Position numbers and translations under genes: made by a program
Shown: one piece after another, positions 19,192 to 25,011 of the stretch
Position numbering within the stretch: position 1 is the stretch's first letter
Layout of the letters: every line of letters starts with the position of its first letter
Notes under the pieces: generated by a model
Seen by the model: only the letters and a program-made list of their open reading frames with translations
What the model was told of the DNA's origin: nothing
Databases searched by the model: none
Assembly (NCBI GenBank): GCA_032249395.1
Contig: JAVVFY010000003.1
Span: 40,738-104,737, forward strand
Length of the DNA stretch: 64,000 bases
Direction of reading: 5' to 3'
Source of the DNA: Candidatus Aenigmatarchaeota archaeon
Lineage (GTDB): Archaea > Aenigmatarchaeota > Aenigmatarchaeia > CG10238-14 > SpSt-28

Positions 19192-20373
19192 CTAAGGAGT
19201 AAACCATTCTATTTCATAATATTTGTGTTCTGAACCAGGCAATTCTATTCTATTAGCCAAATAATATGTTACGCTTGTTTCCCTATCGTTTATAGCAATT
19301 AGCAATCTTAGTCCAAGCTCGTCAGCTCTATCCAAAGCGCTAGCAAGCATCTTCCCGCTTAAACTTTCATCTTCATTAAGAGAAATTATTAGAAAAGAAG
19401 GATCGTCTTTTTTTGGTTTCTCAACTTGATTCCCAGCTTTTCTGTGCCACGCAACAAAATCTATCGGAGTTCTCTCTTTTAAATAGTCTTCCTTCTTCAT
19501 TCCTGGAATTGCCATTATAAAAGTTTTTCTCACGCTATGAGCTACTCTAATTGCTCTTGACCATTCGCTCATTGGCATGCTAATTTCTTTTGGAAACACG
19601 TGAATGACATGCTTAGAATGTTGCCATTCTTTTTTTGTTCCAACCGGCTTTGCTCCGGGAAAATAAATTCTAAAATGAGTTCCAAATTTAAAACCAGTTT
19701 TCAAAATAAAACCTTTATCTCTCCAATCCTCGTAAACTTCTAGCATTCTAGATGCAAAAGGTATCCTTTGTTCAACTTCTTTTAGTACCTCTTCGAAGCT
19801 CATTTTTTTGTTAGAAGATACATCTATCACTTCTACTCCCTTTTTTGAAAGATATAAAGTTTCAATAGCATCCAAAGTTAAACAATTCCCTCTTTCAATA
19901 TTCTTATAAACACCCCATTGACCAAACCAGTAATCCTCAAAAAATTTTCTTGCTTCTCTTCCAAAAGCTAAAGAATAACATTCTTCTCTCATGAAAAATA
20001 TCTGAAAATTTATTTGAAGGGAAATTTTATTTGAAGGATATTTTTTGATTGGACTCTTCCCAAAGTTTTTCATTGTAATCCTTTCAGGAAATGTTATAAA
20101 AAGTCCTCTATCTTTCCAATCTCTAAACACATTATACCTAACAAAGAAATGGTTAGAATAAAATCTTTGAAAAATAGTTGAAAGAGAAACTTCCTTATTA
20201 CCTTCAAAAACGCTAGCCTTTCTTATGTTAGCAAGGTAAAAAACTTCTATGGGATGTAAGTAGATTTTATTTCCTTTCACCTCTCCAATAAAACTTTCCT
20301 CTAGTTCTTTGTTTTGAGAAAATGCTTTACCATCTTCAAAATAAATCCTTATCTCCTCTCTCTCAAACTTCAT
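19192..20373 (-). CDS. endA: tRNA-splicing endonuclease, three-unit (epsilon2-like) type
   Basis: Catalytic unit KTGFKFGTHFRIY...HSKH...RVAHSVRK, preceded by a degenerate unit (VFRDWKDRG) and followed by a third partial unit (ETSVTYY); ~393 aa; start chosen at the ATGA overlap (track gives 20394). Confidence 0.88.
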   Translation of the reverse strand: MKFEREEIRIYFEDGKAFSQNKELEESFIGEVKGNKIYLHPIEVFYLANIRKASVFEGNKEVSLSTIFQRFYSNHFFVRYNVFRDWKDRGLFITFPERITMKNFGKSPIKKYPSNKISLQINFQIFFMREECYSLAFGREARKFFEDYWFGQWGVYKNIERGNCLTLDAIETLYLSKKGVEVIDVSSNKKMSFEEVLKEVEQRIPFASRMLEVYEDWRDKGFILKTGFKFGTHFRIYFPGAKPVGTKKEWQHSKHVIHVFPKEISMPMSEWSRAIRVAHSVRKTFIMAIPGMKKEDYLKERTPIDFVAWHRKAGNQVEKPKKDDPSFLIISLNEDESLSGKMLASALDRADELGLRLLIAINDRETSVTYYLANRIELPGSEHKYYEIEWFTP

Positions 20374-20792
20374 TTTATATCCCTTAATACGCAATCTATT
20401 GGCATATCTATCATAATTTTACACAAAAGATCTATTGTTTGATTTAAAGTGGGGTTTTTTATTTCTCTAGAACCTTTTAAGCTCTCTATTTTTAAATAGT
20501 CTTCATTAGATTGATTTTCTACTAGATATACTTTATAGTTTATTGTTAAGTTATCTAGATAAGACCTTATTTCACTATTTGGAGAAGTGTAGTTTAAATA
20601 AATTATAGTATAGCCTTGAGATATTGCCAAAATTCTTTGGTTTTCACTGAGAAAAGAAATTTTCCTTTCCTTAGGTAGTTCTTGATCTTTATTAGTTGGG
20701 GTATAATATCCTTGTATAAATGCATATGCAAAGCTAGATAGAACCATCACAAATATAAGTAAATATCCTATTGTTTTCTTATCAACTTTCAT
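20370..20792 (-). CDS. Hypothetical membrane-anchored protein
   Basis: N-terminal TM helix, C-terminal CxxxxxxPxxC; coupled to endA. Confidence 0.7.
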   Translation of the reverse strand: MKVDKKTIGYLLIFVMVLSSFAYAFIQGYYTPTNKDQELPKERKISFLSENQRILAISQGYTIIYLNYTSPNSEIRSYLDNLTINYKVYLVENQSNEDYLKIESLKGSREIKNPTLNQTIDLLCKIMIDMPIDCVLRDIK

Positions 20793-21783: not shown

Positions 21784-24596
21784 ATTGAAAAATAAATAGC
21801 CGGCTTGAAAGGTTCTGCTTTTTTTGCTTTTTCTAATCCACTCCTTTCTTCAAAAGTAATTATTATCTTTGCTCCAGCCTCTTTCTCCAAAATTTCCCTT
21901 GCCTCTTCTAAAAGCTTAACTTCTTCTTTCCTTGATAGAATTTTTAATGATTCCCTTTCTCTTTCAATCTTCTTATAGAACTTCGCAACCATTTCTTTTT
22001 CTTCTGGCCCAAAATTTTCTAGTAAGCTCTTTAATTCAACCTTTTCTCCTCTCACGATTTTTCTAACCAAATCAAATTTCCATTTGGCAGCAATTATTAT
22101 ATCTACTTCTTTTGGAGCTCCTCCAGCCAATTTCTTTACTTGCTTTATGTCTTCTATTAAAGATTTTATGTATTCTTCACCTAAAATTGCTTTCTCATCA
22201 ACTCTTTTAAACCTTGGTAAACCTTCTTGAAATACAAACTTCTTTCCACCGAGCATTCTCCAAAACTCCTCAGACAAATGTGGAATTAGAGGAGAAACCA
22301 ATATTACAAATTTCTTTAAAACATCTTTCATTATCTTTCCGTTACCGTTTTTAATATCCCCTACCCTTTTAAAATACCACTCTAAATCGTTTAAAAATTC
22401 GAAAAATAAAAGTTGAGTAGACGTTCTAAACTTAAGATTTTCGTAGGCGTTTATAACGTCTTTACCTATTTTATTTATTTTGGCCAACAAAAATCTATCA
22501 ACATTTCTATTTTTCTTAGATTTCATTCTTTTCAACGACTTAATGAGAGAAAATAAAAAATTCAGCCTCTCTAAAAATACCTTAACATTTTCTCCTCTCC
22601 AATCAGCGTCGCTTAATCCTTCAGCTGAAGAGATTATATTTATTCTTGTTAAATCGCTCCCGAATTCCTCTAACAAACGAAATAGAGGAATTATGTTTCC
22701 TTTGCTTTTGCTCATTTTTTCTCCCGCAATATTAACAAAACCATTTACAGCTATTGCTTTAGGCCAATATTTTTTATTCCAAATTGCAGTATGATGAAAA
22801 AGATAAAATGTTAAATGATTCTGAACTAAATCTTTTGCGGATGACCTTAAATCTACAGGATAAAAGTATTCAAACTCTTCCCTCATCTTTTTCAAAAGAC
22901 TTTCTTTAATTCCATATCTCTTAGCTATTTTATTACAATTACCTTTTCCTAAGAATATGAAATCGAAGACTTCGTCACTCAATTTATCTGCTGGTATATT
23001 TTTCAAATGATGGAAAATTGTATAGAAAGCCATGTATATGGTTGAATCGCTTAAAGTTTCAATAATCCATTCTTTATCCCATGGTAACTTTGTTCCTAAT
23101 CCTGTTTTTCGGGCGCAAGCTTTGTTTTCTAACCAATCAACAGTATTTATAAATTGTTGTCTTATTTCTTCTGGATAAAACTTCATCATATTTATGCATT
23201 CTTTAACTTTTTTCTTCCATTCCTCATCAGAAAATTTTAAGAACCATTGATTCTCTAGTATCTTTACGTGACATCTTGTATTACATCTACAAACCACTAA
23301 ACCTGTGGTTTCCCAAATAAAATCTAAAGCATTAATCGCTTTTAATAATTCAACGGTTTTCTCTTTTGCTTCTCTAACTGGTAAGTCTTTAAATTTGTCT
23401 ACAATCATCTTTCCTTTGTGAAACTCTCTCTTGTAAACTTCTTGAGTAGCCAATTCTAATTTTTCGAATTGCTCTTGATTTTCTATATTATAAGCTTTAC
23501 AAGCTTCTTCGGCCGGAATACCCTTGTAATCTTCCAGTTCTATTATCTTCTTTGGTTTAATTTTCTCTATGTTTAATTCTTTTCCAATTTCACTCTTTTT
23601 CAAATCTTCTAAAGCAATAAAATCGTAAGGAGCATGAGCAGGCACAGACATAACAATCCCTGTACCAAATTCTAAATCTATAAATTTCGCAGGCAATATT
23701 GGTACTTTCTCTCTTGTTACAGGATTTTCTGTTAGTTTACCAACCAAAGAGCTTGAGTTTATTTTTTCTAATTCTTCAACGCTTCTTAACTGATCTCTTA
23801 ATTTTTCTACAGTCTTTTTGCTAACTATCCACTTTTCTCCATTTACTTTTGCTAATACATATTCTTCATTAGGTTTAATCCAAATGTTTGTAACACCGAA
23901 AATAGTTTCTGGTCTTAAAGTAGCACATGGTAAAATTTCCCCGCTATCTAGCCTGAATTTTATTACGTAAAACTGAATCGGACTTTCCCCTTCTCCTTTC
24001 AACCTATCATGATCCCCAGTTGGGCTTTGGCAATGTGGGCACCATATTACCGGATGAGTTCCTTGAACAACATAGCCTTTCTTTCTTAAAGTATTATATT
24101 GCCATTCAATGAATTTGTTGTAATGAGGAGTAATAGCAGTTATGAATGTTCTTCTCCAATCTATACTCATTCCGCATCTTCTCAAGTCTTCTATCCATCT
24201 ATTCATCCAGTATTTAGCAACAAATTCTGGTCCTTTCTCAACAAAATTTTTTATATCTTCGTCGCTTGCCCCAAAAAGTTTAAAAGTTTCTATTTGCGTT
24301 TCGTCATTTTGTTTAATTCTCTCTATAACACCCAATATAGGCTCTCCTGTGGCATGAAAGCCTTGAGGAAAAAGAACGTTAAAGCCTTGTAGTCTTTTGA
24401 ATCTTGCAAAAGAATCAGCCCTAAAAAAAGAAAATGTATGACCAATATGAGGTGCCCCATTTACGTAGGGATATGGAAATGTTACGAAAAACTTTTTTCT
24501 TTTATTATCAACATTTGCTTCGAAAACTTTTGTTTTTTCCCATTTTTTTTGCCATTTCTCTTCTATTTTTTTGATTTCTTCAAAAGTCAAATTCAT
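21780..24596 (-). CDS. leuS: Leucyl-tRNA synthetase
   Basis: PYPYVNGAPHIGH, TLRPET, KDLVQNHL, KMSKS. Confidence 0.97.
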   Translation of the reverse strand: MNLTFEEIKKIEEKWQKKWEKTKVFEANVDNKRKKFFVTFPYPYVNGAPHIGHTFSFFRADSFARFKRLQGFNVLFPQGFHATGEPILGVIERIKQNDETQIETFKLFGASDEDIKNFVEKGPEFVAKYWMNRWIEDLRRCGMSIDWRRTFITAITPHYNKFIEWQYNTLRKKGYVVQGTHPVIWCPHCQSPTGDHDRLKGEGESPIQFYVIKFRLDSGEILPCATLRPETIFGVTNIWIKPNEEYVLAKVNGEKWIVSKKTVEKLRDQLRSVEELEKINSSSLVGKLTENPVTREKVPILPAKFIDLEFGTGIVMSVPAHAPYDFIALEDLKKSEIGKELNIEKIKPKKIIELEDYKGIPAEEACKAYNIENQEQFEKLELATQEVYKREFHKGKMIVDKFKDLPVREAKEKTVELLKAINALDFIWETTGLVVCRCNTRCHVKILENQWFLKFSDEEWKKKVKECINMMKFYPEEIRQQFINTVDWLENKACARKTGLGTKLPWDKEWIIETLSDSTIYMAFYTIFHHLKNIPADKLSDEVFDFIFLGKGNCNKIAKRYGIKESLLKKMREEFEYFYPVDLRSSAKDLVQNHLTFYLFHHTAIWNKKYWPKAIAVNGFVNIAGEKMSKSKGNIIPLFRLLEEFGSDLTRINIISSAEGLSDADWRGENVKVFLERLNFLFSLIKSLKRMKSKKNRNVDRFLLAKINKIGKDVINAYENLKFRTSTQLLFFEFLNDLEWYFKRVGDIKNGNGKIMKDVLKKFVILVSPLIPHLSEEFWRMLGGKKFVFQEGLPRFKRVDEKAILGEEYIKSLIEDIKQVKKLAGGAPKEVDIIIAAKWKFDLVRKIVRGEKVELKSLLENFGPEEKEMVAKFYKKIERERESLKILSRKEEVKLLEEAREILEKEAGAKIIITFEERSGLEKAKKAEPFKPAIYFSI

Positions 24597-24748
24597 TAGA
24601 TAAATTTTAATTGCAAGTTTAAAACTTTATTTCCTACTTTCTATTCGGAAATAGATCTTCAAAAATTTATTAATTTTGAAAGTAAGATTAAAAAAGATAA
24701 AACTAGAAAATATCTAAATGTTTTCTGATGCCGCTCTATCCAACTTGA

Positions 24749-24860
24749 GCCCCCGTAAATTGGGGAAAGCTCAGCTTGGATAGAGCGGCACCCTTCTATC
24801 GAGAAGGTTTGACAAAAGGATGAAAGGTGACGGTCGCGGGTTCAAATCCCGCCGGGGGCG
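24749..24860 (+). tRNA. tRNA-Arg(UCU) with two introns: 8/9 (24757-24767, 11 nt) and 37/38 (about 24799-24824, 26 nt)
   Basis: Acceptor GCCCCCG/CGGGGGC-G; D-arm GCTC-AGCTTGGATA-GAGC with Arg-type A20; GCACC-CT-TCT-A..A-GGTGA (27:43 mismatch); T-arm GCGGG-TTCAAAT-CCCGC. Confidence 0.85.
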
Positions 24861-25011
24861 CTCCTGGAAAACGTTCATCGCCCAACCACCTCATTTAAAT
24901 AACCTTCACTCATTTTCGCCTATGAGAGTTGAAGAAGAAAAATTCAAGAAAATTGTTGAGAAAAGGCTAGAGAAAATAAACAATGATTCAAGCATAAATC
25001 AAAATATTTGG

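Follow-up and report, generated by a model that had tools for sequence, protein, structure and literature searches.

Organization of the tRNA-Arg(UCU) locus

We analyzed a window of 64,000 nucleotides (G000:C3:40738-104737) from the genome of a Candidatus Aenigmatarchaeota archaeon, an assembly of 752,806 bp in 25 contigs with ∼31% G+C that is rated 89.5% complete; DNA matching the window occurs in hot-spring metagenomes. At positions 24749-24860 the window carries a G+C-rich gene for tRNA-Arg(UCU) that is interrupted between positions 8 and 9 and again in the anticodon loop, and that is directly preceded by a sequence complementary to its own D-arm. Below, G-codes denote genomes of the order (G000 is the source genome), L-codes denote loci, g11 and g17 are genera, and f1-f7 are families.

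All parts of the gene are read on the forward strand. Exon 1 (GCCCCCGT, 24749-24756), delimited from the sequence and the predicted fold, runs from G1 to U8 and is followed by an 11-nt mini-intron (AAATTGGGGAA, 24757-24767), which the sequence, an Rfam match, the fold, and excision in silico place between U8 and A9. Exon 2 (24768-24798, A9 to A37) comprises the D-arm, the 5' anticodon stem, and the anticodon TCT at 24795-24797, after which a canonical 37/38 intron of 26 nt (24799-24824), identified from the sequence and by in silico excision, interrupts the anticodon loop. This second intron contains a D'/C' K-loop-like motif (TTGA at 24809-24812 and GATGA at 24819-24823), and its central helix has, by eye, three of four possible pairs. 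Exon 3 (24825-24860) extends from A38 to the discriminator G73, with CCA not encoded.

Both default ARAGORN and Rfam at its gathering threshold miss this gene. The Rfam tRNA model covers only 24768-24852, at 26.1 bits against a cut-off of 29, and because this match begins at model position 9 the upstream insert is placed exactly between positions 8 and 9. Once both inserts (24757-24767 and 24799-24824) are excised in silico, default ARAGORN returns tRNA-Arg(tct) with a regular cloverleaf. Two other ARAGORN calls, tRNA-Ser(cga) i(30,20) with introns allowed and tRNA-Gln(ctg) after removal of the 8/9 insert alone, were rejected, since they arise when the locus is forced into a single-intron model. 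Identity of the exons to those of insert-less orthologues of the genus is 98-99%, and a G27.A43 mismatch is common to every orthologue seen, insert-bearing or insert-less, so that it is a family trait rather than a sign of decay.

No intact second tRNA-Arg(UCU) gene, a point raised by the first-pass annotation of this DNA, was found among 45 ARAGORN calls (introns allowed; one of them false, in rRNA) or 44 Rfam matches in this 89.5%-complete genome, and a scan for T-arm words added a single hidden tRNA gene, that of an initiator. AGA accounts for 6174 of 7890 arginine codons (78%) in 414 open reading frames of at least 200 codons, and the gene at 24749-24860 is thus the sole decoder found for 78% of the arginine codons of this genome. 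Incomplete tRNA sets in DPANN genomes, with unidentified disrupted genes suspected, are described by Kaneta et al. 2018 (PMC5829648), and a gene with an 8/9 intron that escapes standard tRNA finders fills an annotation gap of this kind.

A Predicted Leader/D-arm Helix Encloses the Splice Motif

By repeat search, folding, and duplex energy, the 5' leader (24729-24748, forward strand) is the complement of 24771-24790, which spans the D-arm and runs into the anticodon stem. Extended by G1 and C2, it forms one of two inverted arms of 22 nt (24729-24750 and 24769-24790) that are 91% complementary and lie 18 nt apart in the repeat search. The first-pass annotation had described this pairing as 20 Watson-Crick pairs, one G-U pair, and one mismatch, and the count stands, with the T.G pair at 24745:24774 and the C.C mismatch at 24744:24775; its coordinates and letters for the gene likewise agree with the sequence, the repeat search, and the fold. 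When the upstream 25 nt are matched against the gene body, the duplex energy is -31.1 kcal/mol; over the 44 tRNA genes that ARAGORN calls in this genome, the next best value is -11.6 and the median -6.0, so that the complementarity exceeds chance. Apart from the query region and its inverted arm, a blastn search of 24597-24768 against the whole genome returned nothing but short AT-rich words expected by chance, and we rejected a mobile or repeated element.

The 22-position clamp encloses a bulge-helix-loop (BHL). C3-C6 of exon 1 (CCCC, 24751-24754) pair with the intron GGGG (24762-24765) in a central 4-bp helix, with an AAA bulge (24766-24768) on one side and the loop GTAAATT (24755-24761) on the other. 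The bulge, made up of A24766, A24767, and A9, holds the 3' splice site, and the outer helix follows directly with G10:C2 and C11:G1, whereas the boundary between U8 and the insert lies in the hairpin loop. When 24729-24862 is folded, whether at 37 or at 65 °C, this BHL is part of the minimum free energy (MFE) structure.

EndA is described as cutting within the 3-nt bulges that flank a 4-bp helix (PMC3239211; 10.64898/2026.10.13.758758). If each strand is cut two nucleotides 3' of the central helix, exactly 24757-24767 is removed and U8-A9 is restored, just as the first-pass annotation had derived from the EndA rule. The formal definition of the hBH motif given in 10.64898/2026.10.13.758758 calls for an outer helix of at least 2 pairs. 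Judged on sequence, the locus has every feature of the relaxed hBH/BHL tRNA introns that are spliced by EndA, and the 8/9 intron seems to be a variant of the archaeal BHL tRNA introns in which the outer helix is supplied by the 5' leader.

The Insert and the Leader Complement in Related Genomes

A pattern scan found the 8/9 insert in eight of 118 genomes of the order, spread over 3 of 46 genera and 2 of 7 families: G000, G002, and G004 of the source genus (three of its nine genomes, G000 included), G067 and G069 of g11, and G103, G104, and G107 of g17. A ninth match, in G020, has no insert and was discarded, its upstream CCGT being there by chance. The same lineages alone came up when every species genome and metagenome contigs were scanned, with one new variant (L085) added, for a total of nine distinct insert-bearing genes in three genera of Aenigmatarchaeota. 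The inserts are 11-13 nt long and start with AAAT, AAGT, AGAT, or TTAG; all nine end in GGGGAA, and all nine keep the central 4-bp helix, the AAA bulge, and a loop of 7-9 nt. The 8/9 intron of the first-pass annotation is supported by a geometry kept in nine genes of three genera and by a removal that yields a normal tRNA-Arg(UCU). In G104, taking out the 8/9 insert and nothing else leaves a tRNA-Arg(tct) of 75 nt. In g11 the insert resides in a paralogue with a CCT-type loop, and the g11 UCU gene is without it. These paralogues, L035 (G067) and L036 (G069), have a second intron, whose central helix (CGGC/GCCG) is perfect and whose removal leaves the loop CCCCTAA, that is, a CCT anticodon with C in place of the near-universal U33.

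An upstream complement of the D-arm is present in all nine insert-bearing genes, in lengths and layouts that vary (at least five layouts), so that leader complementarity is conserved in those relatives that have the insert. It comprises 20 contiguous nt in G000; two blocks, GGTGCCGC... then ...CCAAG.TGA, with small bulges in G002 and L085; CCAAGCT-A in G004; CTATCCAAA-TA in G103 and G107; AGCTGG in G067; CAAACTGG in G069; and, in G104, AATTGG ahead of a duplicated first exon. Across these genes the outer helix consists of 2 exon pairs and 4-20 leader pairs, its 5' strand being mostly leader. The first-pass annotation's proposal that the leader is a guide gains from the complement in 9/9 genes and from folds that depend on the leader (see below), but the 22-bp length of the clamp is specific to the G000 lineage, with leader complements of 6-11 nt elsewhere.

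A duplex of leader plus G1 and C2 with the D-arm of -11.7 kcal/mol or lower is predicted for 8/8 insert-bearing genes and for 4/41 insert-less genes with the same D-arm, counts that are not independent because the genomes are kin. The strongest of the four insert-less cases is G005, the closest relative (EndA 86% identical), which has the same neighboring DNA and no insert; its upstream region has kept the distal GGTGCCGCT, but the 10 nt adjoining the gene are no longer complementary to the D-arm. The other five species of the genus are without insert and without complement. They also lack ∼100 nt of intergenic DNA that is common to G000, G002, and G005. The sole D-arm position within the helix that varies is linear position 16, C or T, which is paired as G:C in G002, L085, and G004, as A:U in G103, G107, and G069, and as G.U in G067, and is a C.C mismatch in G000 and unpaired in G104. 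One leader/D-arm pair therefore covaries, from G:C to A:U. These pairs were taken from constrained folds of each sequence, as a MAFFT alignment of the nine leaders places indels regardless of pairing.

In the G104 gene (L038, C3, ∼1490-1560), the first exon and the start of the insert, GCCCCCGTAA, are duplicated 17 nt upstream, and either copy could act as exon 1; in the fold with a 25-nt leader the upstream copy enters the acceptor stem and the downstream copy the splice motif. The duplication may be a trace of the origin or movement of the insert.

Predicted Folding Depends on the Leader

We scored the full motif as the central helix together with G1:C11 and C2:G10 in the MFE structure of full-length precursors, using a thermodynamic model that takes no account of proteins or tertiary structure. 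With no leader the motif is formed in none of the nine insert-bearing genes, the acceptor stem being predicted instead (P ∼1.0). With 12 nt of native leader it appears in 7/9 (not in G067 or G104), and with 25 nt in 8/9 (not in G067). Shuffled leaders gave the motif in 9/900 folds at 12 nt and in 69/900 at 25 nt (10/100 for G000), and the natural leaders of insert-less orthologues gave it in 2/312 at 12 nt and 12/312 at 25 nt.

For G000 we also followed the probability of the C3:G pair of the central helix. It is at most 0.05 at 37, 65, and 80 °C for leaders of up to 8 nt; with a 12-nt leader it is 0.97 at 37 °C, 0.80 at 65 °C, and 0.26 at 80 °C, and with a 20-nt leader it is 0.97, 0.97, and 0.96 at the same temperatures. 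This dependence on leader length and temperature may explain why an organism of hot springs would have a clamp this long.

Promoter-like Signals Upstream of the Gene

Immediately before the tRNA genes of G000 (43 upstream regions) we found T at -1, in many cases paired with A at position 73, and a purine at -2; further upstream come an A-rich stretch (-14 to -12) and a stretch made up of A and T only (-34 to -26). A position weight matrix (PWM) of 14 nt, built by iteration from 42 tRNA upstream regions, describes the ordinary tRNA motif (AAAAAATTTTAATT), the start of which falls mostly at -33 to -42. These signals suggest that tRNA leaders in G000 are very short, although the RNase P RNA is present.

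The promoter prediction for the tRNA-Arg(UCU) gene is ambiguous. Its best promoter-like site, presumably an A-rich B recognition element (BRE) followed by a TATA-like core, lies on the forward strand at 24662-24675, with a PWM score of 6.7 that is in the top 0.2% of 14-mers of the genome; it is ∼50 nt further upstream than the modal promoter position, and the 14-mer is identical in G005 and present in a weaker version in G002. A start directed by this site would fall near 24695-24698, and the whole leader would therefore be transcribed within a leader of ∼50 nt. With the weaker site at 24705-24718 (forward strand, PWM 2.7), the start would instead fall within the leader, near 24738-24743. AAGATTAAAWAAG (24684-24696), a third block that is conserved, has a low PWM score. 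In G005 a strong promoter-like motif (score 8.1) lies at the usual distance from the gene. In G004, G067, and G069 the best sites are 8-13 nt upstream of the mode, so that their short complements would be transcribed, and these positions fall within the spread of ordinary tRNA genes. Metatranscriptome contigs (four runs with small shares, from a 95-99% similar strain) cover the neighboring protein genes and do not cover 24708-24945, which is uninformative either way.

Processing Enzymes Encoded in the Genome

Five kb from the tRNA gene, the window encodes a three-unit (epsilon-type) tRNA splicing endonuclease of 400 aa (19192-20394, reverse strand; Pfam PF01974 and PF02778), which matches PDB chain 4fz2_A over residues 31-400 (E 3.1e-89). 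The same genome has a second, alpha-type EndA of 223 aa (G000:C2:53668-54150, reverse strand; the type spans ∼190-225 aa) and encodes RtcB, and its RNase P RNA scores 116 bits. The ARMAN-2 EndA is reported to cleave a 13-nt BHL intron in vitro (PMC3239211), and, in the account of a 2018 paper, three-unit EndA was known only from Micrarchaeota. Among the 61 genomes searched here, families f1, f3, and f7 yielded it and families f2 and f5 did not. In f2, the five insert-bearing genomes (76-88% complete) show one EndA gene only, an alpha-type of 190-196 aa, and because insert-bearing genomes show this ∼190-aa enzyme alone the insert is not tied to the three-unit EndA; here we depart from the first-pass annotation, which had pointed to the encoded (epsilon2) enzyme.

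Proposed Splicing Pathway and Alternative Explanations

The reading that we favor, to which we assign a probability of about 0.68, is that 24749-24860 is a functional tRNA-Arg(UCU) gene with introns removed by EndA, the 8/9 mini-intron by way of leader pairing with the D-arm. The gene would be transcribed together with its leader, and the leader/D-arm helix and CCCC/GGGG would together out-compete the acceptor stem, switching the fold to the splice motif. EndA would then cut after U8 and before A9, in each strand two nucleotides 3' of the central helix; the leader helix would keep the 8-nt exon 1 beside A9 for ligation by RtcB, and RNase P would take off the leader afterwards. We infer leader transcription, EndA cleavage, the order of these steps, and leader release, the first of them because the mature tRNA gives only G1 and C2 to the outer helix and because the acceptor stem competes for C3-C6. 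Splicing would have to precede 5' maturation, since RNase P would remove the leader, and the leader would in turn have to be displaced or degraded, since clamp and acceptor stem together would make a pseudoknot.

The further claim that the EndA sites are specified in cis by sequence outside the tRNA, with the 5' leader as a built-in guide that refolds the precursor, is more tentative, and we would put it somewhat below even odds. If it is true, introns are not limited to sites at which the mature tRNA provides the helix, the order of splicing, ligation, and RNase P cleavage is fixed with the leader retained until after splicing, and the gene stands directly between tRNA genes with introns and split ones. 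If it is general, introns that depend on flanking sequence and lie close to the 5' or the 3' end could be what hides many of the "missing" DPANN tRNAs.

Several results weigh against a splicing role for the leader. With the TATA-like block mostly at -34 to -26, ordinary tRNA leaders of this genome would be 0-5 nt long. The site at 24705-24718, if used, would give a leader of ∼6-10 nt and therefore predicted folds without the splice motif, and at leader lengths of up to 8 nt the predicted motif probability stays at or below 0.05. In two of the nine genes the MFE structure with the native leader is without the motif, for G067 at both lengths and for G104 at 12 nt, and shuffled 25-nt leaders do yield it at times (69/900 overall, 10/100 for G000). 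RNA made of leader plus mature tRNA is predicted to keep the clamp (-48.4 versus -34.9 kcal/mol), so that an extra release step would be needed. EndA, moreover, may not strictly need the leader, because G1:C11 and C2:G10 already satisfy the published 2-pair definition, and the covariation amounts to one variable D-arm position in interrelated genomes.

These points bear most directly on an alternative that we consider unlikely, though the strongest of the competitors, in which the 8/9 intron is real but makes use of at most the last few nucleotides before the gene, if any, and the 22-nt complement is an untranscribed relic in the DNA. EndA would then see CCCC/GGGG, the AAA bulge, and an outer helix of 2-4 bp, and the relic, left for example by an inverted duplication or a template switch that created or moved the intron, would lie between the TATA box and the start. 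Leaders of 0-5 nt as typical of G000, a start near 24738-24743 from the weak TATA-like site, and a formal hBH definition that asks for 2 outer pairs only (10.64898/2026.10.13.758758) all agree with this, as do the mere 6 (+2) bp of complement in G067 and G104. So does the situation in G005, where the promoter-like motif (8.1) overlaps the equivalent region and GGTGCCGCT is left between TATA and start, and the extra ∼100 nt of intergenic DNA that G000, G002, and G005 have in common and five other species of the genus lack. A relic would not, however, be expected to be re-created or retained lineage by lineage, and yet the complement accompanies the insert in 9/9 genes of three genera in at least five layouts with one covarying pair. 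Without a leader of at least 12 nt, furthermore, the acceptor stem beats the motif in all predicted folds; the complement next to the gene has decayed in G005, the close relative without the insert; and the best-scoring promoter-like site (24662-24675) lies upstream of the entire leader.

To the idea of a decaying and functionless tRNA pseudogene, marked by an inverted partial duplication of the D-arm and a small insertion, we give very little credence. The failure of default ARAGORN and of Rfam at gathering to find the gene would suit it, as would the G27.A43 mismatch and the 3/4 pairs counted by eye in the central helix of the canonical intron. Against this, the gene is the only tRNA-Arg(UCU) candidate of a genome in which AGA makes up 78% of arginine codons, the insert is kept with its exact geometry across three genera, the mismatch recurs in all orthologues seen, insert-less ones included, and the exons are 98-99% identical to those of insert-less orthologues in the genus. 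Just as improbable, in our view, is a leader that serves not splicing but 2'-O-methylation of the D-loop as a cis box C/D-like guide. In box C/D guides the fifth nucleotide upstream of the D box sets the methylation target, and a C box CTGATGC at 24725-24731, a 13-nt guide, and a D box TTGA at 24745-24748 would thereby point to G24779. Such motif-like letters are indeed present in G000, the canonical introns of which have putative D'/C' K-loop guides to position 34 of their own tRNA. The C-box-like letters are nevertheless confined to G000, being absent in G002 (TGGTGC), G005, G004, and the leaders of g11 and g17; the letters CTGA/TTGA follow simply from complementarity to T12-G15; neither a partner motif nor a terminal stem is present; and a complement that occurs only with the 8/9 insert is left unexplained.

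Relation to Known Systems

The closest parallel to a leader-closed 8/9 intron is the 13-nt intron at 59/60 of ARMAN-2 pre-tRNA-Cys(GCA), which is described as having a relaxed hBH motif and as being cleaved by the epsilon2 EndA (PMC3239211, PMC12397907). The hBH introns of ARMAN-2 share with the present ones a very short length (11-13 nt here), a 4-bp exon-intron helix, and a single 3-nt bulge with the other site in a loop, and an epsilon2 EndA homologue is encoded in G000 as well. They differ in position, in that the outer helix here is formed by the 5' leader and G1/C2 rather than by two parts of the mature tRNA, and in that formation of the motif here excludes the acceptor stem. The positions named in one review of archaeal introns are 3/4, 20/21, 22/23, 25/26, 29/30, 30/31, 45/46, 53/54, 56/57, 59/60 "etc.", and 8/9 is absent from those it names (PMC4090602). 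In the passages of the literature that were examined we found no 8/9 intron and no leader-closed cis motif, and an earlier description is possible; a 2026 Asgard preprint, for instance, lumps insertions of the "acceptor stem and junction" as "other" (10.64898/2026.10.13.758758). The 3/4 intron of Thermoproteales tRNAs, attributed to Sugahara et al. 2008 in PMC4090602, has a similarly extreme 5' position with little exon for an outer helix, although at another position and in another phylum.

In the split tRNA genes described for Nanoarchaeum equitans and Caldivirga, trans-spliced halves are joined via complementary flanks (PMC4033280, PMC4090602). There, as proposed here, a sequence that is not tRNA makes a helix next to the splice motif and keeps the parts together for EndA and ligase. 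Our gene, in contrast, is one contiguous gene giving one transcript, with all exons within 24749-24860; its leader pairs with an exon, the D-arm, instead of with a second flank, and would need later removal, presumably by RNase P. From its sequence, the locus would work like a split tRNA and yet stands outside the split-gene family, making it a possible evolutionary bridge between cis-spliced and split tRNA genes. Flanking sequence also forms the EndA substrate in permuted tRNAs and in rRNA processing stems, where leader-trailer pairing is described as forming a motif of the bulge-helix-bulge (BHB) type (PMC3978253, PMC3218864, PMC7714728). In those systems, however, the leader pairs with the trailer and the RNA between them is released or circularized, whereas here the leader would pair inside the tRNA and a small internal intron would be excised. 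Current motif classifiers score introns solely in the context of the spliced tRNA, as stated in 10.64898/2026.10.13.758758. Such classifiers would give the 8/9 intron a minimal 2-bp outer helix, and the rules for intron positions are extended by it.

Other Disrupted tRNA Genes and the Neighboring Gene

Several canonical anticodon-loop introns of the genome share a K-loop, composed of a D'-like (C/T)TGA, a loop of 3-7 nt, and a C'-like ATGA(A/T)(A/G/T). They include the one at 24799-24824 of the window and those at G000:C2:102786-102892, C4:20739-20842, C5:26684-26803, C5:36039-36152, C6:21145-21268, C9:29202-29327, and C12:6099-6208. The 9 nt upstream of D' complement the anticodon loop of the intron's own tRNA, and in 7/10 K-loop introns the fifth position upstream of D' pairs with position 34, with 6-9 of 9 positions paired. 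In the tRNA-Arg(UCU) intron the script chose another site; by hand, AGAAGG (24802-24807) pairs with CCTTCT (24792-24797) and points to U34. From their sequences, the K-loop introns look like cis guides for 2'-O-methylation of the wobble position, as the intron of Haloferax tRNA-Trp is a cis guide for 2'-O-methylation. Mini-introns of 11-12 nt occur in tRNA-Arg(TCG) (G000:C2:32844-32931), tRNA-Pro(GGG) (C2:46525-46613), tRNA-Glu(CTC) (C2:54231-54316, reverse strand), a tRNA with a GAA anticodon (C6:12093-12180, reverse strand; intron at ∼33/34), and tRNA-Gln(CTG) (C1:35200-35286, reverse strand; intron at 29/30). Several of them fit the BHL rule by eye, with a 4-bp exon-intron helix and a bulge made of two intron nucleotides and one exon nucleotide.

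The hidden initiator tRNA(CAT) (L086/L087, G000:C1:106634-106792), missed by ARAGORN and Rfam, has two inserts, one of ∼14 nt near 28/29 and, in the 3' T-stem, one of ∼30 nt. Leader (GGGTAGCGGG) and trailer (CCCGCTATCC) pair with each other, extending the acceptor stem across a small internal loop, and the G002 initiator has the same leader-trailer layout with A:T replacing G.T. Across the 21 genomes searched, the layout is absent from the intron-less initiators of G009, G012, G007, and G019 and from the single-insert initiator of G010. A reading of the leader-trailer helix as a BHB was rejected by hand and by folding, in that the strands of the internal loop are opposed, without the 4-bp stagger, and the cut rule is not satisfied by any 4-bp helix; it does not appear to be an EndA motif. 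With its leader-trailer helix and T-stem intron, this initiator may be a second flank-dependent case in G000.

Upstream of the tRNA-Arg(UCU) gene, a divergent neighbor gene on the reverse strand starts at 24596 (window 24594-24632). Its consensus BRE/TATA, the reverse complement ATAAAGTTTTAAAC, lies at 24617-24632, a placement from which the mRNA of this gene would be leaderless.

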